Assembly (NCBI GenBank): GCA_900552555.1
Contig: URZW01000007.1
Span: 1,580-65,579 of the forward strand
Direction of reading: 5' to 3'
From: an uncultured Clostridium sp.
GTDB taxonomy: Bacteria > Bacillota > Clostridia > TANB77 > CAG-508
DNA: 64,000 nt
Made by a program: the position numbers and the translations under genes. Positions within the stretch are counted from its first letter, which is position 1. Each line of letters opens with the position of its first letter. Below are positions 2,633 to 57,127 of this stretch, one piece after another. The notes beneath the pieces were generated by a model that made no database searches, was not told where the DNA came from, and worked only from the letters and a program-made list of their open reading frames with translations.

Positions 2633-2758
2633 GGACGGTTCTTTTTGGGACATCATGTAAAAAAATTACAGTTTTTAATATACTATATATATCAATATTT
2701 AGAGGTAATTACAAATTTTGGAAAAATGTCCTTTTGAGAACCGTCCCCCAAAAGGACA
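2621..2758. repeat. REP family A inverted doublet (REPIN-like)
   Basis: ATGTCCTTTTAGGGACGGTTCTTTTTGGGACAT (2621..2653) is paired with its near reverse complement ATGTCCTTTTGAGAACCGTCCCCCAAAAGGACA (2726..2758). The spacer is 72 nt. Confidence 0.85.
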
Positions 2759-2763
2759 AAAAA

Positions 2764-3903
2764 ATGGAGGAAAATGTGAAAGCAGTAGTAATAAATAAAG
2801 AAGATTTAAGATACAACATTGAAAAAATCAAAGAATATGCAGAAAAAAACTTGCCAGATGATAATGGAAAAAAAACAAAAATAATAGCTGTTGTTAAGGC
2901 GAATGGATATGGATTAGGAATTGAAAAATATTCAAGATTTTTAGTGGATAATGGAATTGATTTTCTTGCAGTTGCAACAATTGAAGAGGCATTAAAAATA
3001 AGACAATCAGGTATCACAGAAAAAGATGCAAAAATTTTAATGTTATCTTCAACAGCTATAAAAGAAGACATAAAAACACTAATAGGAAATGATATAATAT
3101 TAACAATTGGTTCAAAAGAGGCAGCAGAAGCGATTGATAAAATTGGACAAGACATGAATAAAAAAATAAAAGTTCATTTAAAAATTGATACAGGTTTTGG
3201 AAGATATGGTTTTATTTATAGTGATAGAGAAGAAATAATAAAAATAATTAAACCATTAAAAAACATAAAAATAGAAGGAACATTTACACATTTTTCAAAT
3301 TCATATTATGATGATAAATATACAAAAATACAGTTTGATAGATTTATAGATTGTATAGAAACATTAAAAATGAATGAAATAGAAACAGGAATGTTACATG
3401 TATGTAATACATCCGCATTTATAAAATTTCCACAAATGCATCTAAATGCAGTAAGAATTGGTTCAGCTTTTACAGGTAGAATATCTTTTAAAAACTCAAT
3501 GGGATTAAGAAAAATAGGATATTTAAAAGCTAATGTGGCAGAAATAAAAGAGTTACCAAAAGATTTTAATGTTGGATATTCTAATGCATTTAAAACCAAA
3601 AGCAAAACTAAAGTAGCAATAATACCTTGTGGATATATGGATGGTGTAAATATTCAAACTGGTAGAGATATGTTTAGAACTGTTGATAAAATAAGATATA
3701 TTGTAAGGGACATAAAAGATGCGTTTAAAAAGCAACAAATTTTTGTGACAATAAATGGTAAGAGGTGTCAAATTTTAGGAAGAGTAGGAACATATCATGT
3801 TACTGTTGATATATCAGGCAATGATGTAAAAATTGGTGATGAAGTTATTTTTAATGCAAATATAAAACATATTGATAGTAGTATTAGAAGGGAGTGGAAC
3901 TAA
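2764..3903 (+). CDS. alr: Alanine racemase
   Basis: The PLP-lysine motif AVVKANGYGLG is present. I prefer the start at ATG 2764 (MEENVKAVV). The track start at 2734 is a read-through of the REP unit. Confidence 0.85.
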   Translation: MEENVKAVVINKEDLRYNIEKIKEYAEKNLPDDNGKKTKIIAVVKANGYGLGIEKYSRFLVDNGIDFLAVATIEEALKIRQSGITEKDAKILMLSSTAIKEDIKTLIGNDIILTIGSKEAAEAIDKIGQDMNKKIKVHLKIDTGFGRYGFIYSDREEIIKIIKPLKNIKIEGTFTHFSNSYYDDKYTKIQFDRFIDCIETLKMNEIETGMLHVCNTSAFIKFPQMHLNAVRIGSAFTGRISFKNSMGLRKIGYLKANVAEIKELPKDFNVGYSNAFKTKSKTKVAIIPCGYMDGVNIQTGRDMFRTVDKIRYIVRDIKDAFKKQQIFVTINGKRCQILGRVGTYHVTVDISGNDVKIGDEVIFNANIKHIDSSIRREWN

Positions 3904-5097: not shown

Positions 5098-6888
5098 ATG
5101 GATAAAAAGAAAAATAGCAAAGATAACAAAAAAATATTGATATCATCAATTGCTTTGATTGCATTAGTTGTAATTTTGGCAGGAATAGCTATTTATTATA
5201 TGAGCAAAAATCAAAGTAAAGATGATAAAACATTAGCATATACAGATTTAATAAAAGAAATGTCATATGGAAATATAGAAAAAATTGAAATGACAGTAGG
5301 AAGTACATCTGTAAAAGTAAAAATGAAAAATGTAGATGAAGAAAAAAAATCAGTAGTTCCAAATACGGAAGCATTTATTGAATTAGTACAGCAAAAGGTA
5401 GCAGAAGGAAATGAAATAGAATTAATACAAAAACCCAAAAGTGTTGTGACACAAATTTCATCAACATTATTTGCATTACTTCCAACAATAATAATGGTTG
5501 CATTATTTGTAATGATTTTTAAAATGCAAGGTTTGGGAGAAAAAGGTCAAGTATATGATGATACAGAAAGAAAAACAAAAATAAAATTTAAAGATGTTGC
5601 TGGATTAGATGAAGAAAAAGAGGAATTAATAGAAATAGTTGATTTCTTGAAGAAACCTGAAAAATTCAGTAGAATGGGTGCTAAGATTCCAAAAGGTGTT
5701 TTGTTATATGGAAAACCTGGAACAGGTAAAACATTAATAGCAAAGGCAATTGCTGGTGAAGCAGATGTGCCATTCATATCAATGAGTGGTTCAGAATTTA
5801 TTGAAATGTTTGCTGGACTTGGTGCTTCAAGAGTTAGAAAATTATTTGAAAAGGCAAGAAAATTATCACCTTGCATAGTATTTATAGATGAAATAGATGC
5901 AATAGGAGCTAGAAGAACGTCAAACAGTGGTGCAGAAACAGAAAATAACCAAACATTAAACCAATTATTAGTTGAGATGGACGGTTTTAGTTCAGAGGAA
6001 ACGATAATAGTATTAGCTGCAACAAATAGACCTGAAATGCTTGATAAAGCTTTATTGAGACCAGGAAGATTTGATAGACAAATAACAATTCCAGTTCCTG
6101 ATTTAAAAGGAAGATTGGAAATTTTAAAAATTCATGCTGAAGATAAAAAATTGGCTGAGGATGTTAACTTGGAAAGCATTGCAGAAGATACAGCAGGATT
6201 TACAGGTGCAGAACTTGCCAATATTTTAAATGAAGCGGCAATTATAGCAACAATTAATAAACATGATGAAATAGAAAATTCTGATATAGAAGAAGCAGTT
6301 AAAAAGGTAACAGTAGGACTTGAAAAGAAAACAAGAGTATATTCAGAAAAAGATAAAAAATTAACAGCATACCATGAAGCGGGACATGCAGTTGTAAGTA
6401 GATATTTACCAACACAAACAGATGTAAAAGAAGTATCTATTATACCAAGAGGTGTTGCTGGTGGATATACAATGTATAAATCTGACGAAGATAAATATTA
6501 TATATCAAAAACAGAAATGAAAGAAAAATTGGTTGCATTACTTGGTGGTAGAGCTGCTGAAAAATTGGTTTTAGATGATATTTCAACAGGTGCTAGCAAT
6601 GATATAGAGGTTGCAACAAAAATAGCAAGAGAAATGGTTACAAAATATGGTATGAGTGACAACCTAGGACCAATTGATTTCCAAGGTAAAGAACAAAATG
6701 ATATGTTTGTTTTTGGTGAAAATATTGGTGATAAAATTGGGGCAGAGGTTAAGTCATTAATTGATGAGGCATATGTTAATGCTCAAAAATTGTTAATTGA
6801 ACATAGAGATAAATTAGATGCTATTGCTCAAACATTACTTGTTCAAGAGAAGATAAATGAACAAGAATTTAATAAAATTTTTGAATAA
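5098..6888 (+). CDS. ftsH: ATP-dependent zinc metalloprotease FtsH (paralogue 1)
   Basis: Contains an N-terminal TM segment, Walker A GKPGTGKT, Walker B IVFIDEIDA and the zinc motif HEAGHAVV. Confidence 0.92.
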   Translation: MDKKKNSKDNKKILISSIALIALVVILAGIAIYYMSKNQSKDDKTLAYTDLIKEMSYGNIEKIEMTVGSTSVKVKMKNVDEEKKSVVPNTEAFIELVQQKVAEGNEIELIQKPKSVVTQISSTLFALLPTIIMVALFVMIFKMQGLGEKGQVYDDTERKTKIKFKDVAGLDEEKEELIEIVDFLKKPEKFSRMGAKIPKGVLLYGKPGTGKTLIAKAIAGEADVPFISMSGSEFIEMFAGLGASRVRKLFEKARKLSPCIVFIDEIDAIGARRTSNSGAETENNQTLNQLLVEMDGFSSEETIIVLAATNRPEMLDKALLRPGRFDRQITIPVPDLKGRLEILKIHAEDKKLAEDVNLESIAEDTAGFTGAELANILNEAAIIATINKHDEIENSDIEEAVKKVTVGLEKKTRVYSEKDKKLTAYHEAGHAVVSRYLPTQTDVKEVSIIPRGVAGGYTMYKSDEDKYYISKTEMKEKLVALLGGRAAEKLVLDDISTGASNDIEVATKIAREMVTKYGMSDNLGPIDFQGKEQNDMFVFGENIGDKIGAEVKSLIDEAYVNAQKLLIEHRDKLDAIAQTLLVQEKINEQEFNKIFE

Positions 6889-6890
6889 TA

Positions 6891-6928
6891 AAAAGCTGTC
6901 CAAAATAAATCTTTTGGATAGCTTTTTA
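6891..6928. terminator. Bidirectional terminator hairpin
   Basis: AAAAGCTGTCCAAAA-TAAATC-TTTTGGATAGCTTTT. Confidence 0.7.
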
Positions 6929-6930
6929 AT

Positions 6931-7161
6931 TTACAGTACGGCGGAAATTGTTAAGTTTAACAATTTCTCGTATAATTTTTTTGACCCCTCAACCGAAGGG
7001 AGTATTGCAGTATTTGTGTCGTAACTAAGTTCTCCTTTCAACTCTGCAATATATTTGCAGATAAGTGACATGTTTGGAGAAAACACATCATAGCCACAAC
7101 TTATAGTGGTTGCAATTGGTGTGTCTTTTACTTTAATCTTGAATTGATATGGTGTCTTCAT
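6931..7161 (-). CDS. Hypothetical small protein (76 aa)
   Basis: Its own promoter on the minus strand is TTGACT-17nt-TAATAT. GC is locally higher. I recognise no family. Confidence 0.4.
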   Translation of the reverse strand: MKTPYQFKIKVKDTPIATTISCGYDVFSPNMSLICKYIAELKGELSYDTNTAILPSVEGSKKLYEKLLNLTISAVL

Positions 7162-7243
7162 ATAAAACTGCCTGCCTTTCTTTTTGGTGCATATGTTTTT
7201 AACAACAATAATATATTACCAAATTTTAGGCAAAAAGTCAAAT

Positions 7244-8671
7244 TTACATAATTAACAATTCTCTGATAGCTCTACAATAAATTTCATAAGCTAATAACAA
7301 ATTATCAATAGAAATAAATTCATCAGTTTGATGGCACATATCTTTTTGACCAGGTAAATTTGCTCCAAAAGAAACAAAATTATCAAAAGCACGAGCATAA
7401 GTAGCACCACCAATAGCAATAGGTTCTGCGTTAGAGTTAGTAACATCGTTATAAATTTTGCAAAGAGTTTTTACCAAAAATGAATCTTTTGGAATATGTA
7501 AAGGATTCATTTTTCCAGCAAGTTCACAACGAATGTCACTATACTTTTTACTAACTTCTGTAAATTTATCGGCTATAAAATCAAAAGTAGTATTAATAGG
7601 AACTCTTAAATTAAATCCGATTTTTAATTCGTCATTTTTAAAATAAAATTTACCAACATTTAAAGTAAGTGAACCGGACTCGTCAGGAACATTGATGCCT
7701 AATTTATCTCCATTATAATCAAGTCCAATATATTGTGTAAATAAATCTAATAAAGGTATAACAATATTATAATTTTTAAATAATTTATTTAAAACAATTA
7801 TTAAATGTGATATCGCATTTATACCTAAATCAGGATGAGCAGCATGTGCTTGAATACCATGAGATATTATTTTTAATTGATTGTTATTCAAAATTTCAAT
7901 ATCAATTTTAAAAGAAAGTTTAGAAGCTGTATCTTTTATAAAAGATGTTACATCATTTATGTTGATATTGTTTTTTACTGAAATTATACAACTACAATAT
8001 TTTGGTACTACATTTAGCGGATTATTATTGCAGTTAATATCACTTAAAACAATATCTTTATTTTTAAAAGTAGAATAATCCATAATTAAAAATGGAGAGA
8101 TAAGGCCTTTTTCGGCATATATACAAGGAAAATCAGCATCAGGACTAAATCCTATTGAAGGAATTTCTTCATGTTCTTTATAATAATTAATACATTTCCA
8201 ATCTCTTTCTTCATTAAGTCCTAAGATTAATCTAACTCTTTTATTTATATTGATATTGTTTTCAGAACAATAGTCCATAACTGCTTTCATGGCGTATAGA
8301 CTAGCTATAACAGGGCCTTTGTCATCAATTGCACCTCTACCATAAATTTTATTATCTGCAATATGTGCTTCGAATGGAGGGTAAGTCCAGTTTTCACCTT
8401 CAGGTACTACATCTAGATGACCAACAATTCCAATTAGTTCAGTGCCTTCTCCAAATTCAATATAACCACAATAGCCGTCAATATTTTTGGTTTTAAATCC
8501 AAGTTTTTTTCCTAAATTTAGTGTGTATTCAAGGGCTTTTATGGTGTTTTTTCCAAATGGTTCGCTGGGGTTATTAGATTCTGAGTGAACACTTGGAATT
8601 TTGATTAATTCTTGCAAGTTTGTTATAAGTTCGTCTTTCTTTAAATATTTTTCAAACATATTATCATACAC
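7244..8671 (-). CDS. pepV: M20-family dipeptidase PepV-like
   Basis: The GHLDVVPEG..W..PPF motif, a length of 475 aa, and the catalytic and lid domain layout fit PepV. Confidence 0.85.
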   Translation of the reverse strand: MYDNMFEKYLKKDELITNLQELIKIPSVHSESNNPSEPFGKNTIKALEYTLNLGKKLGFKTKNIDGYCGYIEFGEGTELIGIVGHLDVVPEGENWTYPPFEAHIADNKIYGRGAIDDKGPVIASLYAMKAVMDYCSENNININKRVRLILGLNEERDWKCINYYKEHEEIPSIGFSPDADFPCIYAEKGLISPFLIMDYSTFKNKDIVLSDINCNNNPLNVVPKYCSCIISVKNNININDVTSFIKDTASKLSFKIDIEILNNNQLKIISHGIQAHAAHPDLGINAISHLIIVLNKLFKNYNIVIPLLDLFTQYIGLDYNGDKLGINVPDESGSLTLNVGKFYFKNDELKIGFNLRVPINTTFDFIADKFTEVSKKYSDIRCELAGKMNPLHIPKDSFLVKTLCKIYNDVTNSNAEPIAIGGATYARAFDNFVSFGANLPGQKDMCHQTDEFISIDNLLLAYEIYCRAIRELLIM

Positions 8672-8702
8672 CTTTCTATTTTATTTAACAAATACATTAT
8701 GG

Positions 8703-8900
8703 TTAAGTAATGAGAACGGTTGAGATAACTATAAATGATATTTTTCATAACGTTAACAAATTCTAATGTAAATACTCTAACAATACCCGAATACAGGACC
8801 CTTTAGAGCATTTACTTAAGAATTTGTAACACTATTTTGGTCACATTCGAAATATATTCAAAATATCATTTATACTTATTTTAATTATGCCCATTACTTT
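8703..8900 (+). repeat. Long palindromic element, family PE-2, copy a
   Basis: About 120 nt are near-identical to the reverse complement of 28551..28672. The central imperfect stem of about 27 bp is GTTAACAAATTCTAATGTAAATACTCT / AGAGCATTTACTTAAGAATTTGTAAC. It encloses the loop CAATACCCGAATACAGGACCC. Confidence 0.8.
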
Positions 8901-9959: not shown

Positions 9960-11723
9960 ATGAAAGCAATAGAAATAAGAAATAAATACCTAAATTTTTT
10001 TAAAGAACATGGACACGCTGTAATACCATCAGCACCATTAATACCAGAAAATGACCCATCAGTACTATTTACAACTGCAGGAATGCAACCATTAGTACCA
10101 TATTTATTAGGGGAAAAACATCCATCAGGAACAAGACTTACAGATTACCAAAAATGCTTAAGAACAAATGACATAGAAGAAGTAGGAGATAACAGACATT
10201 TAACATATTTTGAGATGTTAGGAAACTGGTCATTAGGAGATTACTTTAAAGAAGAATCAATTCAAATGAGTTTTGATTTCTTAACAAAAGAATTACAAAT
10301 TCCAGTAGAAAAATTATCTGTAACAGTATTTGCAGGGGATGACGATTGCCCAAAGGACGAAGTAGCAGCAGAATGCTGGAAAAAAGCAGGAATTTTAGAT
10401 GGACATATCTATTATTATGGAAAAGACGATAACTGGTGGATAGCTGGAGAAGAAGGACCATGTGGACCAGACACAGAAATGTTCTATGATACAGGAAAAC
10501 CAGCATGTGGACCGGACTGTCAACCTTCATGTGACTGTGGTAAATATGTTGAAATATGGAACAATGTATTTATGGAATATTTCAAAAGCAAAGATGGAAA
10601 ATATTCAAAATTAGCTCAAAGAAATGTTGATACAGGACTTGGACTAGAAAGAATGACAATGTTGTTACAAGGAAAAGAAACACCATTTGATACAGAATTA
10701 TTCAAACCAGTAATGGACAGACTATCAGAATTACAAAAAGTTGATAACATAGAAAGTAGAAGAATCATAGCAGAACACTTACGTTCAAGTATGATGGTAA
10801 TTAGTGATGGTGGAAGACCAAGCAATGTTGACAGAGGATATATTTTAAGAAGATTAATTCGTAGAATGGTAAGACATATGAACAAACTACAAATAAATCT
10901 AGATGAAATATCAACACTAATAGATATCAATGTTGAAAACTTAAAAGAAATGTATCCAGACTTAGCAAAAAATCAAGAATTAATAAAAAATGTAATAATT
11001 GAAGAAAAAAATAAATTTGTAAAAACACTTGCACATGGTGAAAAAGAATTCGAAAAAGAAATGAATAAAGCTAAAGAACAAGGAAAAACTAAAATAGATG
11101 GAAAAGTAGTATTTAAACTATATGACACATATGGATTTCCACCAGAAGTTACAAGTGAATTAGCACAAGAAAACAATATGACTGTTGATATGAAAGAATT
11201 TGACGAATTATTTAAAGTACATCAAGAAAAGTCAAGAATGGGTTCAGAACAAAAATTTAAAGGTGGACTAGCAGAACAAAATGACACAACAATCGCATAT
11301 CATACAGCAACACATTTATTAAATGCAGCACTTAAAGTAGTTTTAGGACCAGAAACACATCAAAGAGGTTCAAACATTACAATAGATAGAATGAGATTTG
11401 ACTTCAACTGTGACCACAAAATGACATACGAAGAAAAGAAACAAACAGAAGATTTAGTAAACAAATGGATTCAAGACGCTTTACCTGTAACAGTAGAAAA
11501 AATGAAAAAAGAAGATGCTGTTAAATCAGGTGCAGAATGTATGTTTATTGAAAAATATCCAGATGTTGTAACTGTTTACACAATAGGAGATGTTTCAAAA
11601 GAACTTTGCGGTGGACCTCATGTTAAAAACACAAGTGAACTTGGAAAATTCAAGATCAAAAAAGAAGAAGCAAGTTCAGCAGGAGTTAGAAGAATAAAAG
11701 CAATTTTGGAAAAAGGGATTTAG
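9960..11723 (+). CDS. alaS: Alanine--tRNA ligase, short form lacking the C-Ala domain
   Basis: Contains FTTAGMQP, GNWSLGDYFK and the editing-domain motifs HTATHLLNAALK and CGGPHV. The ORF ends 6 aa after RRIKAIL, and its stop codon lies inside a REP unit. Confidence 0.85.
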   Translation: MKAIEIRNKYLNFFKEHGHAVIPSAPLIPENDPSVLFTTAGMQPLVPYLLGEKHPSGTRLTDYQKCLRTNDIEEVGDNRHLTYFEMLGNWSLGDYFKEESIQMSFDFLTKELQIPVEKLSVTVFAGDDDCPKDEVAAECWKKAGILDGHIYYYGKDDNWWIAGEEGPCGPDTEMFYDTGKPACGPDCQPSCDCGKYVEIWNNVFMEYFKSKDGKYSKLAQRNVDTGLGLERMTMLLQGKETPFDTELFKPVMDRLSELQKVDNIESRRIIAEHLRSSMMVISDGGRPSNVDRGYILRRLIRRMVRHMNKLQINLDEISTLIDINVENLKEMYPDLAKNQELIKNVIIEEKNKFVKTLAHGEKEFEKEMNKAKEQGKTKIDGKVVFKLYDTYGFPPEVTSELAQENNMTVDMKEFDELFKVHQEKSRMGSEQKFKGGLAEQNDTTIAYHTATHLLNAALKVVLGPETHQRGSNITIDRMRFDFNCDHKMTYEEKKQTEDLVNKWIQDALPVTVEKMKKEDAVKSGAECMFIEKYPDVVTVYTIGDVSKELCGGPHVKNTSELGKFKIKKEEASSAGVRRIKAILEKGI

Positions 11724-11854
11724 GGACGTTCCTGAAAATCCCTTTTTCAGGGGAATGGGGGACACTCCTTTTTGATTATGAATAGTTTTAAATTTAAAAA
11801 GGACTGTCCCCTTATCCCAATTTGAAGGGAATTTAAGGAACGTCCCTAAATCCC
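11715..11854. repeat. REP family B inverted doublet (REPIN-like)
   Basis: GGGATTTAGGGACGTTCCTGAAAATCCC...GGGGGACACTCC (11715..11768) is paired with its inverted partner GGACTGTCCCC...AAGGAACGTCCCTAAATCCC (11801..11854). The spacer is 32 nt. Confidence 0.85.
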
Positions 11855-11879
11855 TCTTCGAGAGAAAGGAAAGATAAAA

Positions 11880-14914: not shown

Positions 14915-15204
14915 TGGATGCAAAAGAAAAAAATAAAAGTGTAAAAATGAAAGCTTTTGATAAATTAAAAAAAATTAATGATAAATGTTCAACAGTCAAA
15001 ATAATTAGAAGCGGAGTACTAAAAAATTTTGAATTTAATACTAACAAAGAAGTAAGAAAACATGAAATAAAAGAAGAAATGTTAAATTTAAGTGAAACTA
15101 ATAATTCAATGTTTGGAAAAGACGTTCTAGATGAATATGGCATAAAAAGAGAAGAAAATGGAGAATATGTAATGAATAATCAACCAAATGAAAAAGAAAG
15201 ATAG
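14914..15204 (+). CDS. Hypothetical Lys/Glu-rich protein (96 aa)
   Basis: A TAATG stop/start overlap with the upstream gene suggests translational coupling. The stop TAG shares its last base with a REP C unit. Confidence 0.5.
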   Translation: MDAKEKNKSVKMKAFDKLKKINDKCSTVKIIRSGVLKNFEFNTNKEVRKHEIKEEMLNLSETNNSMFGKDVLDEYGIKREENGEYVMNNQPNEKER

Positions 15205-15234
15205 TTGTCAATAGGGACGCCCCTTTTTGACAAC
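15204..15234 (+). repeat. REP family C singlet
   Basis: GTTGTCAATAGGGACGCCCCTTTTTGACAAC has an 8-bp stem and a 15-nt loop. Confidence 0.85.
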
Positions 15235-15280
15235 TTCAATTTTGTAAAATGTATAATAAAGAAAGAAGAGGAACAAAGAT

Positions 15281-18153: not shown

Positions 18154-18166
18154 TTTGAGATTCAGA

Positions 18167-18220
18167 GGGATTGAGGGACGTTCCTTAAAATCCCTTTTTT
18201 GAGGGATTAGGTGACACTCC
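18167..18220 (+). repeat. REP family B singlet
   Basis: GGGATTGAGGGACGTTCCTTAAAATCCCTTTTTTGAGGGATTAGGTGACACTCC. Confidence 0.85.
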
Positions 18221-18264
18221 TTGAAAATTTCAATAAAAAGATTAAAAAAAAAGATGTAAATTTC

Positions 18265-20110: not shown

Positions 20111-20247
20111 TTGTCCTTTTGGGGACGGTTCTTTTTGGGACATTATTACTAAAAAGAATATTCTGTGTAACCGCTCTGTTTCTAAGATTTTATATTATGC
20201 TTAATTTTAAAAAAATGTCCCAAAAAGAACCGTCCCCAAAAGGACAT
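20111..20247. repeat. REP family A inverted doublet (REPIN-like) inside the spoVA operon
   Basis: TGTCCTTTTGGGGACGGTTCTTTTTGGGACAT (20112..20143) has its exact reverse complement within 20215..20247. The spacer is 71 nt. Confidence 0.9.
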
Positions 20248-21248
20248 TAAAGTTCTATACTGATTGCATGAGCTATTCCAGGAATGGATTCGCCCTGTTG
20301 AGAACTGGTAGAATTCATTAAAGCACCAGTTGCAACAAGTAATAATTTTTTAATTTTCTTTTCTCTTAATTGCTTAAATAAATAACCTGAAAATACAGTA
20401 CCACAACAAGCACATCCACTTCCACCAGAATGAGTATCTTGCTTAGCTTTGTCAAAAATTAAAACACCACAATCATTATAATTAGATTTAATATTATAAC
20501 CTTGAGATTTTGCAATATCAATAGAAAGCTCTTTTCCGATGTGACCAAGGTCACCACTTATAATTGCATCATAATAACTTGGATTTCTGCCTGTATCTTT
20601 AAAATGTGTTATTAAACTATCGACAAATGCAGGAGCCATTGCCGCACCCATGTTATTAGCGTCTTTTATACCCATGTCAACAATTTTTCCTGGGGTGATG
20701 TGAGTTATATATGGACCCGTACCTGTTTTAGAAATTATAGCAGCACCACTTCCAGTAACAGTCCATTGAGAAGTAGGTGGACGTTGATTACCAAGCTCAA
20801 GTGGAAATCTAAATTGTTTTTCAGCACTACAAAAATGACTAGAAGTTGCACATAATGCATGTTCAGCAAAGCTTTCAACAGCAATGGCAGATAATGCCAT
20901 AGATTCTACAAAAGTAGAACATGCACCAAATACACCGAAAAATGGAATGTTTAATTCGCGAAGACCAAAACTAGAAGAAATACATTGGTTAAGCAAATCA
21001 CCAGCAAAGCAACAATCAATTTGCTCAGAAGGAATACCAGATTTACTAATTACTGTATTTACAGTTTCCTTTATAATTTTACTTTCAGCTTTTTCCCAGG
21101 TTTTTTCACCCCAAAACTCATCATCTAAGGTTTGGTCAAAATATTTGGCAAGAGGACCTTGGGATTCCTTAGGACCAACAATAGAAGCACATTCTGTTAT
21201 AGTTGGGGGATTATCAAATTTAATAGTTTGTTTTCCTATTTTTTTCAA
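20247..21248 (-). CDS. spoVAD: Stage V sporulation protein AD
   Basis: A thiolase-like SpoVAD with KIGKQTIKFDNPP at the N-terminus and AGDLLNQ. The likely start is TTG 21248 behind AGGAG. The track ATG at 21284 has no RBS. Confidence 0.85.
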   Translation of the reverse strand: MKKIGKQTIKFDNPPTITECASIVGPKESQGPLAKYFDQTLDDEFWGEKTWEKAESKIIKETVNTVISKSGIPSEQIDCCFAGDLLNQCISSSFGLRELNIPFFGVFGACSTFVESMALSAIAVESFAEHALCATSSHFCSAEKQFRFPLELGNQRPPTSQWTVTGSGAAIISKTGTGPYITHITPGKIVDMGIKDANNMGAAMAPAFVDSLITHFKDTGRNPSYYDAIISGDLGHIGKELSIDIAKSQGYNIKSNYNDCGVLIFDKAKQDTHSGGSGCACCGTVFSGYLFKQLREKKIKKLLLVATGALMNSTSSQQGESIPGIAHAISIEL

Positions 21249-22028: not shown

Positions 22029-22103
22029 ACTAAACCTCCTAAAAAATCTTTTACAAATATTTTTTCCGTTTTTAGAAAATTTATACATTATGATTCATTA
22101 TTA

Positions 22104-22322
22104 TAAAGTGGCTTTCTTATGGTAGTTTGCTGTATAATAGTATTTTCAATTGCCTTCGGTTCAATACACAATATAATAATTTCTAAAATCTTTTTTGGAC
22201 TCCCTTCCACTAAAGTGAACTCTTGTCCAAAAAAGATTTAATAAATTTTAATATTGTTTCAATCACATTCAGGCAATTGAAAATACTATTATACAGCAAA
22301 CTACCATAATAAAATCACTTTA
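22104..22322. repeat. Long rod-like palindromic element, family PE-1, copy b
   Basis: The core 22150..22272 is identical to 1294..1416. Perfect 38-nt inverted arms are TTATGGTAGTTTGCTGTATAATAGTATTTTCAATTGCC and its reverse complement. Confidence 0.85.
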
Positions 22323-28520: not shown

Positions 28521-28740
28521 ACGGTTTTGTAATTATAATTTATAGAATATGATATTTTGAATATATTTCGAATGTGACCAAAATAGTGCTACAAATTCTT
28601 AAGTAAATACTCAAAAGGGTCCTGTATTCGGGTATTGTTTGAGTATTTACATTAGAATTTGTTAACATTATGTCGGAAACATGAGAAAAATATGAAAAAT
28701 ATCATTTATAAGTATTTTAACCAGTATCATTACTGAACTA
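28521..28740 (-). repeat. Long palindromic element, family PE-2, copy b (inverted relative to copy a)
   Basis: The reverse complement of 28551..28672 matches 8745..8866 with a few substitutions. A roughly 21-nt insertion lies near 28672..28692. Confidence 0.8.
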
Positions 28741-28817
28741 TAACTAAAAACATTTTAAATTTTTTGTATAATTTTATTTTATATGATATAATAAGCAAAA
28801 AAATAAGGAACCAAAAA

Positions 28818-29324
28818 ATGAAAGTATTATATAAAAATAAAACAAAATATACAAAAGAAACATATGCAAAATATCTACAATTTCATCAAAAAAAATTTGG
28901 AAATAGATACACTTTTACCACAATAATAACTATATTATTACTATGCTTTTGTATCATTACAAATTTACAATATTATAACAAACCATTAGCTTTTATATTA
29001 TTAATTGTTTTACTAATTTTCTGTTCTTATAGATTTTTTCACCCAATAAAACTAGTAAAAAAAGAATTAAAAACAGAAAAATTCGAAAAAGAAAAAGAAT
29101 TCACATTTAAATTCTATGAAAAATTTTTTACAATTTCCGATACAAAAAATTTAGAAAAAATAAGATATTGGCAATTGCATAAAATATACGAAACAGAAGC
29201 TTTTTTCTACATTTATATAGATAAAAGTCATGCTTTCCTATTAGACAAATCAACATTTACTAAATGTAATGTATCAGAATTCTTAAAATTTATAAAAAGA
29301 AAAATTTGGTTTAAAATACTATAA
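28818..29324 (+). CDS. YcxB-like membrane protein
   Basis: Two TM helices are followed by FTFKFYEKFFTISD..WQLHKIYETEAFFYIYIDKSHAFLLDK, which resembles YcxB. The start is at MKVLYKNK. Confidence 0.55.
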   Translation: MKVLYKNKTKYTKETYAKYLQFHQKKFGNRYTFTTIITILLLCFCIITNLQYYNKPLAFILLIVLLIFCSYRFFHPIKLVKKELKTEKFEKEKEFTFKFYEKFFTISDTKNLEKIRYWQLHKIYETEAFFYIYIDKSHAFLLDKSTFTKCNVSEFLKFIKRKIWFKIL

Positions 29325-29380
29325 ATTTTTAGATATTTTCGGAATCCAATTCCAAAAATATCTAAAATCTCCATAATTGA

Positions 29381-29411
29381 AAAAAGATGAAGTCACCCCT
29401 CATCTTTTTTT
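29381..29411. terminator. Bidirectional terminator
   Basis: AAAAAGATGA-AGTCACCCC-TCATCTTTTT. Confidence 0.7.
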
Positions 29412-29415
29412 ACAT

Positions 29416-31227
29416 TTACTCACCTTCAAAAATTCTTTCAAATTCATCAGCTTCAATTTTCTCTTTTTCAAGTAAAACTGCAGCAACCGCATGTAATTTA
29501 TCAACATGGTCTGTAAGAATTTGTTTAGCTCTGTTATAGCCTTTATCAATAATAGCCTTTGTTTCCTCATCTATTATACCTGCTGTTTCCTCTGAATATT
29601 CTTTAGATTGAGCAAAATCTCTACCCAAGAACACTTCACTTTGATCAGAACCAAGCATTAATGTTCCTATTCTTTCACTCATACCATATTTTGTAACCAT
29701 GCTTCTAGCAATTTTTGTTGCTCTTTCTATATCATTACTTGCCCCTGTTGAAACATCATTTAATATTAATGCTTCTGCAACTCTACCACCTAAAAGAGAT
29801 ACAATATTTTCTTCCATTTCTGTTTTTGACATAAAGTTTTTATCTTCTGTTGGTCTATACATTGTATAACCACCAGCCATGCCTCTTGGTACAATTGATA
29901 TTTGATGTACTGGGTCTTGTGTTTCTAAGTAATGACTTACTACTGCGTGACCGGCTTCATGGTATGATACAAGTCTATTTTCTTTTTCACTTCTAACTCT
30001 TGTTTTCTTTTCAGGTCCCATAGTTACTTTAACCATAGCATCTTCAATTTCTTTCATTCCAATTTCAGTTAGATTTCTTCTTGCTGCAAGTAATGCCGCT
30101 TCATTTAATACATTTTCTAGGTCCGCACCTGCAAATCCAGATGTATTTTTTGCAATTACTTTTAAGTCAACATCGTCTGCTAATCTTTTCTTTCTAGAAT
30201 GAACCTCTAATATTTGCTCTCTTGCTTTAACATCAGGAGCTCCAACAACTATTTGTCTGTCAAATCTTCCTGCTCTTAATAAGGCTTTGTCTAATACATC
30301 AGGTCTATTTGTTGCTGCTAAAACGATAACACCTTCATTATCTGAGAAACCATCCATTTCAACTAATAATTGATTTAATGTTTGTTCCCTTTCATCATGT
30401 CCACCGCCTAGGCCAGCACCCCTTTGACGTCCAACTGCATCAATTTCATCTATAAATATGATACATGGTGCATTTTTCTTAGCTTGTTCAAATAAATCCC
30501 TAACTCTTGAAGCACCAACACCAACAAACATTTCAACAAAGTCTGAACCACTTATAATAAAGAATGGTACACCAGCTTCACCTGCAACTGCTTTTGCAAG
30601 TAATGTTTTACCAGTTCCTGGTTGACCTACTAATAAAACACCTTTTGGTATTCTTGCTCCCATATCTGTAAATTTCTTTGGATTTCTTAAAAATTCAACA
30701 ATTTCTTGTAATTCTTCTTTTTCTTCGTCAACACCTGCAACATCGTCAAAAGAAATTTTATTTCTGTCTGCTGGTGTCATCATTCTAGCTTTGCTCTTAC
30801 CAAATGACATTGATTTTCCACCATTTTGTCCATTTGCTGCTCCACCCATCATAAAGAACCAGAATATAAAGAATATTATCAAAATTCCAAATGGTGTAAG
30901 TAAACCTAATATAATTGATAATACTGATTCAGAACTTTCTTCTAAAGTGAATGCTCCATTTTTAATAAATTCATCAGTATAATTCATAAAGTTTTCCATA
31001 TTTGGAATATTTACTTGTTTTTTTATTTTATCATCAGATAGTTGAACCGTTGCAGAAGTTCCATCTGCATCTATAACTATTGACTCTACTTTTCCCTCAT
31101 TTATCTTCGCAATTAATTCTGAATATTTTAGTTTTGTATTTGTGTTTGTCATTATTGATGACAACAATACTATAAATATTACTCCGATTATTAGCCACAT
31201 TGCTAATGTTTTAATTCCGTTTTTCAA
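29416..31227 (-). CDS. ftsH: ATP-dependent zinc metalloprotease FtsH (paralogue 2)
   Basis: [17 protein letters not shown] and HEAGHAVV motifs are present. It lies downstream of tilS, as is canonical. Confidence 0.92.
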
Positions 31228-31491: not shown

Positions 31492-32520
31492 TTACATCAA
31501 ATTTATAAAATAAATTTTTTGATTTTTTACTAAAACTTTTATATTTTTATTTGGAGTTAGATATTTATTACCTATATTTTTTTTACATAATTTTATAATA
31601 TCTTCTATATGTATTTTTTCTATTCCTTTTGTTGTTCCCAAAAGTCTTGATATAGTATATAACAAAAGTCTTGATTTTATAACCTTTTCTTGCTTGTTAA
31701 AACCTTTTAAATCCATTACAATTTGTTTTTTTTCTTCATGTTGCACATATTCTTTATACTTTTCTTCAACAACTTTTTCTAAATATTCATCTTCCTCTTT
31801 TACTAAATCTGATAGTCTATCCATTGTTTGAATTATATTTGGATTAAATTCTTCTTTAATGAATGGAATAACAATATTTCTTACTTTATTTCTAGTATAA
31901 ACATTTTCAAAATTTGTTCTATCAATTCTTGGTTCAATTCCATTTTGAGCACAATATTCTTCTATTTCAAATCTTTCACACTCAATTAAAGGTCGTATAT
32001 ATTTGTTATTCTTTATTGGTTCAATTCCCTTCAAACCTGCTATTCCGCTACCTCTTAGCATATTCATAATAATAGTTTCTATTTTATCATTTTTATTATG
32101 AGCAATAGCAATTTTATTTGCATTCTCTTTTTCCAAAATTTCATCAAAAAATTCATATCTTGCATTTCTTCCCGCTTCTTCTGTTCCTATTTTTTTATTA
32201 TTAGCAATTTTTTGAACATCTATACTTTTTGCATAAAAAGTAACTCCTATTTTTTTGCAAAAATTTTCAACAAATTTTTGATCATCTATTGCTTCTTCCC
32301 TTATCATATGATTCACATGTGCAACTATTATATCAAAGTTCATGTGTTGTTTTTTGTCATTTCTTATGTCATTTAAAATATTTAACATAGCAATAGAGTC
32401 CGGTCCTCCTGAAACACCAAGAACCAGCCTATCTCCATCTTTTATTAAATTATATTTTTTTATTGTTTCCAAAACTTCTGTCAATAGGGACGCCCCTTTT
32501 TGACAACTTTTCTTTTCCAT
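31492..32520 (-). CDS. tilS: tRNA(Ile)-lysidine synthase
   Basis: The PP-loop LVLGVSGGPDS is present. The start ATG 32520 gives MEKKSCQKGASLLTEV, in which residues 5-14 are encoded by a REP C unit. Confidence 0.8.
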   Translation of the reverse strand: MEKKSCQKGASLLTEVLETIKKYNLIKDGDRLVLGVSGGPDSIAMLNILNDIRNDKKQHMNFDIIVAHVNHMIREEAIDDQKFVENFCKKIGVTFYAKSIDVQKIANNKKIGTEEAGRNARYEFFDEILEKENANKIAIAHNKNDKIETIIMNMLRGSGIAGLKGIEPIKNNKYIRPLIECERFEIEEYCAQNGIEPRIDRTNFENVYTRNKVRNIVIPFIKEEFNPNIIQTMDRLSDLVKEEDEYLEKVVEEKYKEYVQHEEKKQIVMDLKGFNKQEKVIKSRLLLYTISRLLGTTKGIEKIHIEDIIKLCKKNIGNKYLTPNKNIKVLVKNQKIYFINLM

Positions 32521-32573
32521 TTGACTATCATTCCTTTCTGTCAATAGGGACGCCCCTTTTTGACAACTTTTCT
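32476..32573 (+). repeat. Two tandem REP family C units (identical 38-mers, 60-nt period)
   Basis: TTCTGTCAATAGGGACGCCCCTTTTTGACAACTTTTCT occurs at 32476..32513 and again at 32536..32573. Confidence 0.9.
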
Positions 32574-33309
32574 ATTTTAATTCTTTTGCTATATTTCGTA
32601 CAGTTTCTCTTCCTACATTTATGTATATAGATATTTGCCTTAATGAAAGACCATAATACTCTTTTAACATATTAATTATCTCTTTTAAATTCTTTCTCTC
32701 ATTTTTCAAAGTATCAAAATTAATATTATTAATTTTCATATACTCTTCTATAGCATTTTTTATCTCTACTTCTTTTTCTTCTTCTATTTCTAAAAAATTT
32801 TCTTTCTTATCTAAAATATCTTCTTTTATCAATAGCCCATTGATATTTCGTTGAATTTCTTCCATATTTTTTATATATTCGTTGTAACTTGAATACTCAT
32901 ATTCAGATGCTAACCTACAAATACCTGCTTTTACAGGATTATTATGTATATAATTTATACATGTATACAATTGTTTTTCCGAATAAATTACCTGACTTTT
33001 ATATCTATCTCTAAATACATAACCTACCCTGTTATATTTTTTATTGTAATACATCGCATATAAAGTATTTACCTTATGCATAAAACGACTTAAGCATTCT
33101 ATATATTCTTCTTTTATCAATATGTGAACATGATTATCCATGATACAATATGAAACAATATAAACATCAATTTCCTTTTTTACTTTATTAATAAATTTTA
33201 AATATTGCCTTTTATCTTCAACCTCATTAAGAATATACTCCTTATTTATTCCTTGAACCACGATATGATAAAAAAACATATTAGTACATTTTCTTGGACC
33301 TCTTGCCAT
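32572..33309 (-). CDS. REP-associated tyrosine transposase (RAYT)-like HUH/Y1 protein with C-terminal HTH
   Basis: The HUH motif lies in IMDNHVHILIKE and the Tyr motif in GYVFRDRYKSQVI. The C-terminal tail is LSLRQISIYINVGRETVRNIAKELK. An AGGAGG RBS precedes ATG 33309. Confidence 0.75.
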   Translation of the reverse strand: MARGPRKCTNMFFYHIVVQGINKEYILNEVEDKRQYLKFINKVKKEIDVYIVSYCIMDNHVHILIKEEYIECLSRFMHKVNTLYAMYYNKKYNRVGYVFRDRYKSQVIYSEKQLYTCINYIHNNPVKAGICRLASEYEYSSYNEYIKNMEEIQRNINGLLIKEDILDKKENFLEIEEEKEVEIKNAIEEYMKINNINFDTLKNERKNLKEIINMLKEYYGLSLRQISIYINVGRETVRNIAKELK

Positions 33310-33408
33310 ATTTTCCTCCTTACTTCTTAAGGTCCCACAAAATTTATCCCCCAAAATGTATTTACATAATACTATATTCTTTTATAAAAGTCAATCATAA
33401 AAGTAAAA

Positions 33409-33439
33409 GTTGTCAAAAAGGGGCGTCCCTATTGACAAC
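33409..33439 (-). repeat. REP family C unit, inverted relative to 32476..32573
   Basis: GTTGTCAAAAAGGGGCGTCCCTATTGACAAC is the exact reverse complement of the 15204 unit. It shares one base with the dnaB stop codon. Confidence 0.9.
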
Positions 33440-34773
33440 TAATCATTATATCTTCTTTCCAAATTAACAAATTTTGTATAACTTCCAAGCCATCCTAAAT
33501 CCACAGTTCCAGTTGAACCACCTCTGTGTTTAGCAATAATGACTTCTGCCACATTTTTCTTTTCGCTATCTTCATTATAATAATCGTCTCTATATAAAAA
33601 CATAACAATATCAGCATCTTGTTCAATAGCTCCAGATTCACGCAAATCTGAAAGCATAGGTCTATGATCAGGCCTTTGTTCAACAGCTCTTGACAACTGT
33701 GAAAGTGCAATTACAGGCACATTTAATTCTTTTGCAAGAATTTTTAAAGATCTACTTATTTCTGATATTTCTTGTTCACGGCTAGCGTTACGCTTATTAC
33801 TTCCTTGTACCAATTGCAAGTAATCTATTACAACTAAACCAATATTTTTTTCTAATTTTAGTTTTCTACATTTAGCTCTTATTTCCATTACAGATATACC
33901 TGGTGTATCATCTATGTAAATTCCTGTTTCTGAAAGCGGGCCAATTGCTTCTGCTAATTTTCCCCAATCTTCATCTTCCAACTTACCTGTTCTGACTTTA
34001 TTACTATCAACCATGGCTTCACTACATAAAATTCTGTTTACCAATTGTTCTTTTGACATCTCCAAACTGAATATTGCCACTGGTGTATTTCCTCTTACTG
34101 CTGCATTTGTAGCAATATTTAATGCAAATGCAGATTTACCCATTGCAGGTCTTGCAGCAACTAATATAAGTTCTGAGCCATGTAAACCTGCTGTTCTGTA
34201 ATCCAAGTCTGAGAATCCTGTTGGAACACCTGTTATATGTTGTTTTCTATTATATAACTCTTCCAATTGAGTAAAACTATCAACCAAAATATCTTTTATA
34301 GGTGCATATCCTTTTTGATTTTTATCTTGCATTATATTAAAAATCTTCTTTTCCGCACCTTCCATAATATCTTCAACATCTTCTGTTGGGTCATATCCTA
34401 AATCTATTATTTCATTTGCAGTTTTTATCAAATTTCTTAATACAGATTTTTCTTCAACAATTTTAATATATTTAGTTGCATTTGCCGTTGTTGGAACCTT
34501 TTCAGGTAATTCTGCCAAATATTCAAAACCACCTACTTGCTCAAATTTTCCCATTGATTCTAATTCGGATTTTAATGTTATTAAATCAATTGGCTCTGCT
34601 CTGTTATACAAGTTCAACATTGCTGAATATATTATTCTATTATCTTCTCTATAAAAATCTTCTTCCTTTAAAACTTCTATACTACTTGCCACAGCTTCTT
34701 TATCTGTAAGCATACTTCCTATTACTGCTTGCTCTGCTTCTACATCATGTGGTGGTATCTTTCCTATGTCCAT
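33439..34773 (-). CDS. dnaB: Replicative DNA helicase
   Basis: Walker A ARPAMGKSAF is present. The 444-aa product follows rplI, as is usual in Firmicutes. Confidence 0.95.
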   Translation of the reverse strand: MDIGKIPPHDVEAEQAVIGSMLTDKEAVASSIEVLKEEDFYREDNRIIYSAMLNLYNRAEPIDLITLKSELESMGKFEQVGGFEYLAELPEKVPTTANATKYIKIVEEKSVLRNLIKTANEIIDLGYDPTEDVEDIMEGAEKKIFNIMQDKNQKGYAPIKDILVDSFTQLEELYNRKQHITGVPTGFSDLDYRTAGLHGSELILVAARPAMGKSAFALNIATNAAVRGNTPVAIFSLEMSKEQLVNRILCSEAMVDSNKVRTGKLEDEDWGKLAEAIGPLSETGIYIDDTPGISVMEIRAKCRKLKLEKNIGLVVIDYLQLVQGSNKRNASREQEISEISRSLKILAKELNVPVIALSQLSRAVEQRPDHRPMLSDLRESGAIEQDADIVMFLYRDDYYNEDSEKKNVAEVIIAKHRGGSTGTVDLGWLGSYTKFVNLERRYND

Positions 34774-34869
34774 TGCTATTCCCCCAAAAAAATTTGTTAA
34801 TTTTTATTAATTAATGTTTTATTGTAATTTGATAATATATTTTTTGTCATACCGCGTAAGCAACCAAAA

Positions 34870-35316
34870 TTACTCAGAAATTATATCTACTTTTACTTTT
34901 CCAATTACTCCCTCAAATAATTTAATATCAACAGTAACTGTCCCTAAAGTTTTTATTGTTTCTTTTAAATCAATTTTCTTTTTATCAACTTTTATCTGAT
35001 ATTGTTTTTCCAAATTTTCCGCTATATCTTTTGAAGAAACTCCACCAAATATTTTTCCATTTGCACCTGATTTTACTTTTATTTTTAATAAAATTTTTGA
35101 TAATTTGTCTGCTGTTCTTTCCGCTTCTTCTTTTTCTTGTGATTTTTTAAATGCTTTTGAATCTTGCATTCCCTTTAGTTTGCTCATGTTCTCTGCATTT
35201 GCTTCTACTGCTAAATTTTTTGGAAATAAAAAGTTTCTAGCATATCCATCTGATGCATTTATTACTTGGTCTTTTTTTCCTACTCCTTTTATATCTGCTT
35301 TTAATATTACTTTCAT
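34870..35316 (-). CDS. rplI: 50S ribosomal protein L9
   Basis: Begins MKVILKADIKGVGKKDQVINASDGYARNFLFP. Confidence 0.92.
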   Translation of the reverse strand: MKVILKADIKGVGKKDQVINASDGYARNFLFPKNLAVEANAENMSKLKGMQDSKAFKKSQEKEEAERTADKLSKILLKIKVKSGANGKIFGGVSSKDIAENLEKQYQIKVDKKKIDLKETIKTLGTVTVDIKLFEGVIGKVKVDIISE

Positions 35317-35416
35317 TAAAATCACAACCTTTCGCTTTTTTCTAACTTTATATAGTTTACACTATTTTTGAGGATTTTTCAACCGAACACAGTAACTTTT
35401 GTTTAATACATAAAGT

Positions 35417-51509: not shown

Positions 51510-51563
51510 GGGATTGAGGGACGTTCCTTAAAATCCCCTTTTAAAGGGATTGTGGGACAGTCC
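51510..51563 (+). repeat. REP family B singlet directly upstream of the rpsP RBS
   Basis: GGGATTGAGGGACGTTCCTTAAAATCCCCTTTTAAAGGGATTGTGGGACAGTCC. Confidence 0.85.
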
Positions 51564-51597
51564 TCTAATTTTTTATATAAACTTAAAAAGTTAATAA

Positions 51598-56471: not shown

Positions 56472-57092
56472 ATAAAATTAAAACAAGCACTAAGGCTTGC
56501 CATTAATTTCTAAATTAAAATATAGATGGTAAAAATCTAAGTAAATTTTACGGTTTAGGTCTGGTTGAATTTCTCTACTTCCCGCTTAGCATTACTGCTA
56601 GAACCGTTTCCGTTTAAGGGAACCAGCTAAATTTATTTTAGCCACCAGATCGCCACTCAAATCCGTACCTTAATCCCCAGATTTTCAAGCTTTTGATAAA
56701 GCAAACATTCTAGAAGTTTTCCTTGACATACTTTTGCAAACTTACTAGTCTTTTTTGCAAGTATAATTTCATAATCCAGAATAAAAATTATTTGGCCGAA
56801 CAATTTTCATTCCCGTCAAATTAATCCCAATACACTCACTCGAGACAGGCTACACTATGTATTTTGTGTCTTGGCACTCAACATAGGTTTAACTTAAATT
56901 TTTCTATTTAAGCCTCCGCGAAACTAGGGAATCACATATATGCCATTATATATTACCCTAACCCCTTTACTCCCTGGTTACACACAAAACTGGCATTTCG
57001 CGCACAAACAAGAAACTTCAACGATGTGCCCTTTAGTGGATTTTTAGCCCCACCCTCGTAAGTTTAAGTACGACTAGAATAATGCACCATCA
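56472..57092 (-). ncRNA. Large structured ncRNA candidate (~620 nt; OLE-like by size and context)
   Basis: It lies within a 923-bp gap without ORFs, where GC is clearly above the local background. It has its own promoter and a 3' hairpin CAAGC-CTTAGT-GCTTG plus a T-tract. Many local helices and one long-range helix are visible (TCTGGTGG...CAACCAGA). Confidence 0.6.
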
Positions 57093-57098
57093 ATTAAT

Positions 57099-57127
57099 AT
57101 TATAACTTATTTCTAGAAATATTCCAA
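57099..57127 (-). promoter_or_regulatory. Promoter of the ncRNA
   Basis: The minus strand reads TTGGAA (57127..57122), a 17-nt spacer, then TATAAT (57104..57099). Confidence 0.6.

Follow-up and report, generated by a model that had tools for sequence, protein, structure and literature searches.

A probable domesticated RAYT nuclease with a helix-turn-helix domain, bracketed by inverted hairpin repeats between dnaB and tilS of an uncultured gut Clostridium

In the genome of an uncultured Clostridium sp., the genes dnaB and tilS are separated by an open reading frame (ORF) whose product resembles the REP-associated tyrosine nucleases (RAYTs, also referred to as TnpA_REP), named after their association with repetitive extragenic palindromes (REPs). 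The locus is contained in a stretch of 64,000 nucleotides (contig URZW01000007.1 of assembly GCA_900552555.1, positions 1,580 to 65,579), which was analysed as a whole and to which we refer as the window. The RAYT ORF extends over 32575-33309 on the reverse strand (-), encodes 245 amino acids (aa) and is terminated by a stop codon at 32572-32574. A ribosome-binding site with the sequence AAGGAGG is found at 33315-33321 and the alignment of homologues favours the ATG at 33309 over an upstream TTG as start codon. The original prediction, which was made from the sequence alone, had described the gene as a RAYT wedged between dnaB and tilS and bracketed by inverted REP hairpins in the arrangement of a REPtron. 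The location between both genes is confirmed by our analysis, except that the REP next to tilS lies inside the annotated frame of this gene. With dnaB and tilS as its neighbours, the RAYT is not adjoined by tnpB, which agrees with the proposed lack of a TnpB partner. The features of the locus, and a fourth copy of its hairpin located elsewhere in the window, are as follows:

32476..32513 (+), 3' REP copy 2, with its core at 32479-32505; direct repeat of copy 1
32536..32573 (+), 3' REP copy 1, with its 27-mer core at 32539-32565; begins at the RAYT stop codon with a gap of 0
32575..32784 (-), helical domain at the C-terminus with a helix-turn-helix (HTH) as its last part, aa 176-245, containing the conserved segment SLR-I-x6-GRETVR-I
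32785..32841 (-), acidic low-confidence linker, aa 157-175; predicted local distance difference test score (pLDDT) below 50 at 161-175, variable and gapped in the alignment
32842..33309 (-), Y1 HUH nuclease domain of the RAYT, aa 1-156, assigned by Pfam, alignment, the 4ER8 profile, and AlphaFold2 (AF2) with Foldseek
32950-32952 (-), codon of the catalytic Tyr120 in YIHNNP, followed by N124-P125
33124-33132 (-), HUH codons for H60, V61 and H62 in the NHVHIL motif
33366..33394 (-), promoter-like site TTGACT-17-TATTAT between 5' REP and RAYT start, identified by consensus match only
33408..33440 (-), 5' REP, imperfect palindrome AGTTGTCAA-T-AGGG-ACGC-CCCT-TT-TTGACAACT, identified by the exact 29-mer and a hairpin scan
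15203..15235 (+), solo REP of the same hairpin family, located between two co-directional genes immediately past a TAG stop codon

The classification of the protein is founded on profile searches, conserved motifs and a predicted structure. Its residues 13-124 match the Pfam family Y1_Tnp (PF01797) with 46.1 bits compared to a cut-off of 23, a family that is matched by all 21 aligned homologues, and the NCBIfam model REP_Tyr_transpos (NF047646) is matched with 68.3 bits (E = 6e-19), whereas the NCBIfam model IS200 (NF033573) scores with 20.2 bits (E 5.5e-4) against a cut-off of 55. The first match in a profile search of the PDB is the E. coli TnpA_REP in complex with a REP (4ER8), which is also the best Foldseek match of the AF2 model (pLDDT 80; E 9.5e-9, template modelling score 0.70), and the top 30 Foldseek matches in the PDB are without exception TnpA_REP, IS608, ISDra2 or IS200 transposases. 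These results bear out the predicted homology to Y1 transposases and RAYTs. In an alignment of 21 sequences, with identities ranging down to 45%, the residues H60, H62, Y120, N124 and P125 are invariant. Both histidines are part of the HUH motif H60-V-H62 that had already been recognized in the original prediction. Conversely, the proposed placement of the catalytic tyrosine in the context GYVFRDRY turned out to be incorrect. In the profile alignment to 4ER8, Y120 falls on Y115 and N124 on N119, which in the E. coli enzyme act as catalytic tyrosine and metal ligand, respectively (PMC3479197), thus identifying GYVFRDRY as a conserved neighbouring motif that does not provide the nucleophile. The stretch Y120-I-H-N-N124-P125 constitutes the invariant Y-x-x-x-N-P signature of class 2 TnpA_REP proteins and is followed by a Ser motif (Y137-x-Y139-S140) that is equally invariant in the alignment. 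The C-terminal domain (residues 176-245), noted previously as an HTH-like tail, is a conserved segment that is predicted with high confidence (pLDDT 94) and contains S222, R224, E235 and R238 as invariant positions. Its nearest folds are the HTH domains of DeoR, sigma region 4, ParB, resolvase and the DNA-binding domain of DnaA, all with weak E-values, weak Pfam matches to HTH families (HTH_11, Sigma70_r4, HTH_23, HTH_28) are found in 10 of the 21 members, and a sequence search of the PDB with this domain returned nothing significant.

The repeat surrounding the gene is defined by the 29-mer TGTCAATAGGGACGCCCCTTTTTGACAAC, which occurs in four exact copies in the window (15206-15234(+), 32479-32507(+), 32539-32567(+) and 33409-33437(-)), compared to zero expected from 100 shuffles. 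The RAYT ORF is bracketed by one of these hairpins on its upstream side and by two in opposite orientation on its downstream side, with the fourth residing away from the locus at 15206. This layout was anticipated in the original prediction, including the solo copy, which had been placed near 15204. The exact reverse complement on the 5' side, described as covering 33409..33439, is present, but the match ends at 33437. Similarly, the overlap of the REP with the stop codon of dnaB (33439-33441) involves two bases instead of the proposed single one, once the 5' hairpin is extended to 33 nt (33408-33440). The two identical 38-mers found on the 3' side are contained in a direct repeat of 38-41 nt (32476-32516 and 32536-32576) with a spacing of 60 nt. 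In the 5' REP, which precedes the RAYT start by 95 nt, the short motif GGGACG is carried on the sense strand of the gene, and in the 3' REP copy 1 it is found on the antisense strand. As single-stranded DNA (ssDNA), the 33-mer has a folding free energy of -10.7 kcal/mol (z -7.3 compared to shuffles) and is predicted to form an outer stem of 9 bp that is separated by a small internal loop from an inner stem of 4 bp, which is closed by an ACGC tetraloop. An Rfam search of the region gave nothing at gathering threshold and a permissive search for a known RNA family yielded Hrs13 alone, at chance level (E 0.22). We also considered intrinsic terminators, but none of the REPs was recognized as such in a scan, and both orientations with respect to the adjacent genes are about equally frequent among them.

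The REP proximal to tilS (32479-32505) is located inside the tilS reading frame as annotated by gene callers, which on 8 contigs let the gene begin 52 nt past the RAYT stop, at an ATG at 32520. As annotated, the REP encodes the decapeptide SCQKGASLLT in the TilS N-terminus MEKK-SCQKGASLLT-EVLETIKKY, which is missing from orthologues. A TTG within the REP, with AAAGGGG 8 nt upstream, is a possible alternative start of tilS. In the sister species (locus L047), a degenerate in-frame copy of the REP is retained in the gene.

The described layout is not a peculiarity of the window. In an alignment-based genome scan, we identified at least 80 loci encoding proteins of 33-85% identity, among them loci from Clostridia, Tissierellaceae, Sporomusa, Desulfosporosinus, Syntrophomonas and others; together with the window, the listed loci amount to the 81 to which all family counts refer. 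For each locus, the two flanks of 300 nt were searched for inverted repeats reaching a score of at least 20, with flanks displaced by 1 kb serving as control. Such repeats were found in 57 of the 81 listed loci, compared to none in 65 displaced-flank controls, where the score reached a maximum of 12. The arms contain GGGAC and are self-palindromic in 51 of the 57 cases, with a median folding z of -2.5 compared to +0.4 in controls. Their orientation is strongly biased: upstream of the gene, 53 loci have the motif-bearing hairpin on the sense strand, and downstream of it, 55 loci have it on the antisense strand, while the reverse arrangement is found in 4 loci on either side. The 108 flanking hairpins contain 85 different stems, and each protein clade has its own type of stem and loop. 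By contrast, the 5' side of the loop, which mostly encompasses 11-17 nt, shows the pattern (G)GGGAC(G/A)G with GGGGACGG being conserved. In 38 of the 57 loci, the 3' arm begins no more than 16 nt from the stop codon, with which it overlaps in 17. The 5' arm is located at a median distance of 78 nt upstream of the gene, which would leave room for a promoter, and it is in this interval where we find the best promoter-like site of the region in the window (10/12 matches).

Copies of the locus hairpin are also dispersed in related genomes. The exact 27-mer was found in 46 stretches from 15 species-level metagenome-assembled genomes (MAGs) of uncultured gut Clostridia, corresponding to 57 distinct and almost entirely extragenic sites, and is thus, as had been proposed, not confined to the RAYT locus. 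Since the flanks of these 57 sites are unrelated, the repeated unit consists of the hairpin and about one base on each side. A tally of 59 scored copies, which adds copies near locus ends to the distinct sites, assigns 37 to spacers between co-directional, 12 between convergent and 2 between divergent genes, 4 to positions within an ORF near one of its ends and 4 to the edges of loci, whereas none of the 59 is found deep inside a long ORF. Many of the dispersed copies are located less than 20 nt from the end of a gene and many are arranged as inverted or direct dimers.

The gene itself has remained at its place over considerable divergence. The order rplI-dnaB-RAYT-tilS-ftsH is found in L048, L050, L059, L065 (Clostridium sp. 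CAG:440) and L075, and RAYT-tilS-ftsH is retained in L055, which is located at a contig end. Altogether, at least 8 species have kept the gene between dnaB and tilS, with the RAYTs of this site grouping into a single clade. In these syntenic loci, the RAYTs are 41-63% identical compared to 82-87% for DnaB, where present. All of the 23 inspected contigs with identical DnaB carry the RAYT at one locus each, in one case with a split ORF. Compared to the nearest species (L047), the RAYT has evolved under purifying selection, with a ratio of nonsynonymous to synonymous substitution rates (dN/dS) of 0.16 at a dS of 0.43, which falls into the range of its neighbours (0.31-0.65). In about 45 related genomes, dnaB directly adjoins tilS with a gap of 20-170 nt, which corresponds to the empty site whose existence in relatives was to be checked. 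Homologues are rare on plasmids, with 17 partial matches in 72,556 records, and on phages, with a single match.

Several individual loci deserve mention. One of the sites without RAYT (L135, 2063-2100) contains a solo REP-like hairpin, AATTGCCAAAAGGGACAGTCCTTTTTGGCAATT, directly past the dnaB stop codon, and another (L141) harbours degenerate GGGGACG remnants between dnaB and tilS. On a contig from a human-gut metagenome (L129, 5466-6202), the RAYT ORF is split into 79 and 174 aa and thus either a pseudogene or the result of an assembly error. Across 9.3 kb, a contig from ERR1190956 (L130) is 100% identical to the window, which assigns the organism to the human gut. Finally, in L047, the nearest species of the genome set, a 2-kb segment encompassing rplI and dnaB (1828-3895 of CAKPAB010000010.1, equivalent to 33405-35400 of the window) occupies its place in reverse orientation compared to the window and is bounded at both ends by inverted REPs of the type found at the RAYT locus (family A), which suggests a REP-mediated inversion of these two essential genes.

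The RAYT locus can be related to several described systems. Class 2 TnpA_REP proteins have the Y-x3-NP motif as their defining feature, and the members of their subclass 2.1 are characterized by a C-terminal HTH resembling Bac_DnaA_C, HTH_23 or HTH_28 and by a Ser motif following the tyrosine (PMC6006769). In the vicinity of the genes of this subclass, Quentin et al. (2018; PMC6006769) found no REP-like secondary structures. Di Nocera et al. (2013; PMC3733652) describe the genes termed TIRYT as flanked by terminal inverted repeats (TIRs) that share the sequence GGGGWSAS, are in some cases self-complementary and are repeated to a moderate extent, and RAYTs of Group 1 are 'also found in the Clostridia', with flanking 16-mers present in about 12 copies (Bertels et al., 2017; PMC5581495). 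Apart from a one-line taxonomic mention, none of these surveys (PMC3733652, PMC6006769, PMC5581495) describes an example from Firmicutes, and our full-text searches for REP families of Clostridia found no description beyond them. Judged from its sequence, the locus fits the HTH-bearing RAYTs known as TIRYT or TnpA_REP subclass 2.1, both of which are probably equivalent to RAYT Group 1. It shares with them the RAYT core with Y-x3-NP, the Ser motif, the C-terminal HTH and a low copy number, as well as dispersed repeats of moderate abundance that frequently form dimers. The resemblance extends, at least in part, to the G-rich inverted repeats in the flanks, where the published GGGGWSAS is matched in 6 of 8 positions by AGGGACGC at the locus, in 7 of 8 by GGGGACGG in most relatives and fully in one clade containing GGGGACAG or GGGACAC. 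Unlike in the description of subclass 2.1, the arms at this locus and at most of the 81 listed Bacillota loci are themselves hairpins with the motif at their apex. The new aspect is thus that in Bacillota the so-called TIRs are, as predicted from their sequence, hairpins carrying a G-rich motif at the tip, in contrast to the GTAG at the foot of classical REPs.

Among solved structures, the best match is the E. coli enzyme YafM (4ER8), whose REPtron (PMC3333891, PMC3479197) shares with the locus the HUH motif combined with a single tyrosine and N-P, a single-copy gene located between inverted copies of an extragenic palindrome that is also dispersed, and vertical inheritance. Unlike the RAYT described here, the E. 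coli protein contains 165 aa and no HTH, with sequence identity amounting to about 16%. The REPIN-RAYT systems of Pseudomonas (Bertels and Rainey, 2011; PMC3116915) resemble the locus in their use of inverted REP dimers as unit, in vertical inheritance and in the co-divergence of RAYT and repeat, and they contain one RAYT per REPIN family. They differ by belonging to Groups 2 and 3, by the lack of an HTH and by their GTAG-type REPs, and copy numbers are lower in our case. With TnpA of IS608 and ISDra2, as members of the IS200/IS605 family, the RAYT has the Y1 HUH fold, the logic of the active site and signals in the form of ssDNA hairpins in common. However, these elements are mobile and present in multiple copies, often contain tnpB and possess different subterminal hairpins at their left and right ends, along with tetranucleotides for guiding and cleavage, none of which we observe here, nor is the obligate dimerization of their transposase a feature of the described system. 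As further candidates, we considered the CGTC-tagged REPs, which combine a terminal CGTC, a stem of 8-9 bp, a loop of 4-5 nt and a CCA tail and lack a transposase (Di Nocera et al., 2013). In our hairpins, CGTC (the complement of GACG) is located in the loop instead of the end, the geometry differs and a transposase is associated. Neither do they correspond to classical GTAG-tagged REPs, since a conserved foot sequence was found neither among the 57 copies of the locus hairpin family nor among the 108 hairpins flanking its homologues.

Taken together, we consider it likely that the ORF at 32575-33309(-) encodes a domesticated single-copy RAYT, fused via its acidic linker to an HTH, that operates within a REPtron and spreads REPs by the following mechanism. 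In regions where DNA is single-stranded, such as replication forks, strands of a REP would fold into hairpins of variable stem, whose apex displays the conserved G-rich motif, which is GGGACG here and GGGGACGG in most relatives. The enzyme would bind this hairpin and employ Tyr120 to cut nearby ssDNA, resulting in a 5'-phosphotyrosine link, with a metal ion presumably held by His60, His62 and Asn124. Rejoining of the strand to another 3'-OH would then spread REP units, as singles or dimers, and maintain them in extragenic DNA, while the RAYT gene would stay put between dnaB and tilS and be inherited vertically. We infer these activities, encompassing binding, cleavage and strand transfer, and hence the mobilization of REPs and the roles of the apical motif and the HTH, from the features described above. 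The REPtron reading proposed originally is supported, with a layout that extends to the family, and is to be qualified in that the hairpins are devoid of the GTAG foot of classical REPs.

Certain observations weigh against this interpretation. Although matching NF047646, the protein with its 68.3 bits misses the equivalog cut-off of this RAYT model (80 bits), and H123, a metal ligand in TnpA_REP, is replaced by Ala128. Binding and cleavage by E. coli TnpA_REP require a 5' GTAG at the foot of the hairpin and a bulge in the stem (PMC3479197), whereas the locus hairpin has no such GTAG, with the tip of the hairpins being conserved instead of the foot and neither a conserved foot nor a cleavage or guide sequence found among the 108 flanking hairpins. 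The number of exact copies amounts to 11-14 per fragmentary MAG, compared to hundreds in case of classical REPs. All three REPs at the locus are invariant across 8 contigs of the species, with zero polymorphisms, and thus give no sign of recent mobility. Finally, no biochemical activity is known for the HTH-bearing RAYT subgroup.

Instead of being domesticated, the arrangement of a gene between two REPs might constitute an IS200-like insertion sequence (a 'TIRtron') that is autonomous and still transposes as a whole, and the dispersed hairpins could be its solo ends or derivatives in the form of miniature inverted-repeat transposable elements (MITEs). In agreement with this view, the empty dnaB-tilS sites in many relatives (with gaps of 20-170 nt) imply that the unit was inserted at some point, homologues are found in many different contexts in Bacillota, among the matches listed even with two copies in some genomes, and a few of them reside on plasmids and one on a phage. 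A transposing element is, however, difficult to reconcile with a position kept in at least 8 species by RAYTs of a single clade, with a dS equal to that of neighbouring housekeeping genes and with the presence of one locus in each of 23 contigs in the absence of tnpB. Its ends would be identical inverted hairpins instead of distinct left and right ends, and the score of 20 bits compared to the 55 demanded by the IS200 model points in the same direction, leading us to regard this scenario as improbable.

We assign a similarly low probability to a function of the protein mainly as HTH-containing DNA-binding regulator or architectural factor, where the hairpins would act as binding sites or as terminators and stabilizers of mRNA and where the nuclease would not be involved in their spread. 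Such a function would account for the conserved and confidently folded C-terminal HTH, which resembles domains binding double-stranded DNA, for the position of the 3' hairpin, which in most loci abuts or overlaps the stop codon (within 16 nt in 38 of the 57) and is thus reminiscent of an element at the 3' end of an RNA, and for the T-rich run that follows about one third of the copies in forward orientation. Yet, it leaves the invariance of all catalytic residues across wide divergence unexplained, and it is opposed by the nearly balanced orientation of REPs with respect to their neighbours, the outcome of the terminator scan, the occurrence of inverted and direct dimers and the copy inside a coding region. 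Moreover, stems that diversify with the protein clades are a property of a mobilized repeat and not of the operator of a regulon. Far less probable still is a coincidence, in which the spacer between dnaB and tilS would be a hot spot for REPs and the HUH gene unrelated to them, as could be suspected from the solo REP-like hairpin in this spacer of L135 and the degenerate remnants in L141, both of which lack a RAYT. With orientation-specific motif hairpins flanking most of the 81 listed loci in unrelated contexts, but none of the displaced-flank controls, this explanation is effectively refuted.

Besides the repeats of the RAYT locus (family A), the window contains two further hairpin families, B and C, and GGGACG is present in all three, each time on a different stem. 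The sequence TAGGGACG is common to families A and B, where it is placed on unrelated stems. The general pattern of family B is GGGATT-T/G-AGGGACGTTCCT-TAA-AATCCC, and in most cases a second unit with GGGGACAC or GGGACAGTCC comes next. A search of related MAGs for the exact pattern gave 105 stretches, where it often forms inverted pairs with a spacing of about 100 nt, and a homologue of the RAYT was found in none of them. In other genomes, a RAYT paralogue is flanked by hairpins resembling family B (L102, L068, L076, L087, L092). The presence of GGGACG in families A, B and C and the lack of a RAYT beside the 105 family B sites would be compatible with one enzyme serving several families. In an extension of the preferred interpretation as domesticated RAYT, which we offer as a tentative and rather speculative proposal, the HTH-fused RAYTs of Bacillota would read an apical GGGGACG on a hairpin with otherwise free stem, unlike the recognition of a GTAG foot, a single enzyme would service several REP families, and the REPs would actively remodel core loci, as might be illustrated by the inversion of rplI-dnaB between two REPs and by the REP located in frame within tilS.

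The positions of families B and C and of two RNA genes in the window are as follows:

11709-11858, 18166-18244, 51510-51587, 59455-59520 and 61652-61721, family B, doublets and one 150-nt palindrome
2622-2758 and 20112-20248, family C, TGTCC-TTTT-GGGGACGGTTCT-...-GGACA, two inverted dimers with 60-75-nt spacers, REPIN-like
56510-57106 (-), full-length ornate large extremophilic (OLE) RNA, 351 bits
1-336 (-), tmRNA gene, cut by the start of the window

The window also contains a repeat of 185 nt in two copies of 94% identity (1243-1427 and 22099-22283), with inverted arms of 47-52 nt separated by a spacer of 115-128 nt, which looks like a MITE and for which there was no match in Rfam. On a larger scale, the regions 5098-8869 and 28549-31227 are arranged as mirror images, with two ftsH paralogues (about 75% identical on the DNA level) and a segment of 124 nt (96% complementary) being inverted around an interval of about 20 kb. 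Gene strand and GC skew both change sign at about 29.3 kb.

The biology of REPs and RAYTs has been worked out almost wholly in Proteobacteria. The complete system, consisting of nuclease, flanking hairpins and dispersed copies, is now found in a variant form in abundant, though uncultured, Clostridia of the human gut and in the wider Bacillota, and it concerns the HTH-bearing subgroup of RAYTs for which the main phylogenomic survey had reported no associated hairpins. The combination of a conserved tip with a variable stem offers a testable hypothesis on how HTH-bearing RAYTs might recognize their DNA. With REPs touching essential genes, namely at the stop codon of dnaB, in the 5' coding region of tilS and at the boundaries of the rplI-dnaB inversion in a sister species, these elements are relevant to genome stability, annotation and strain typing.

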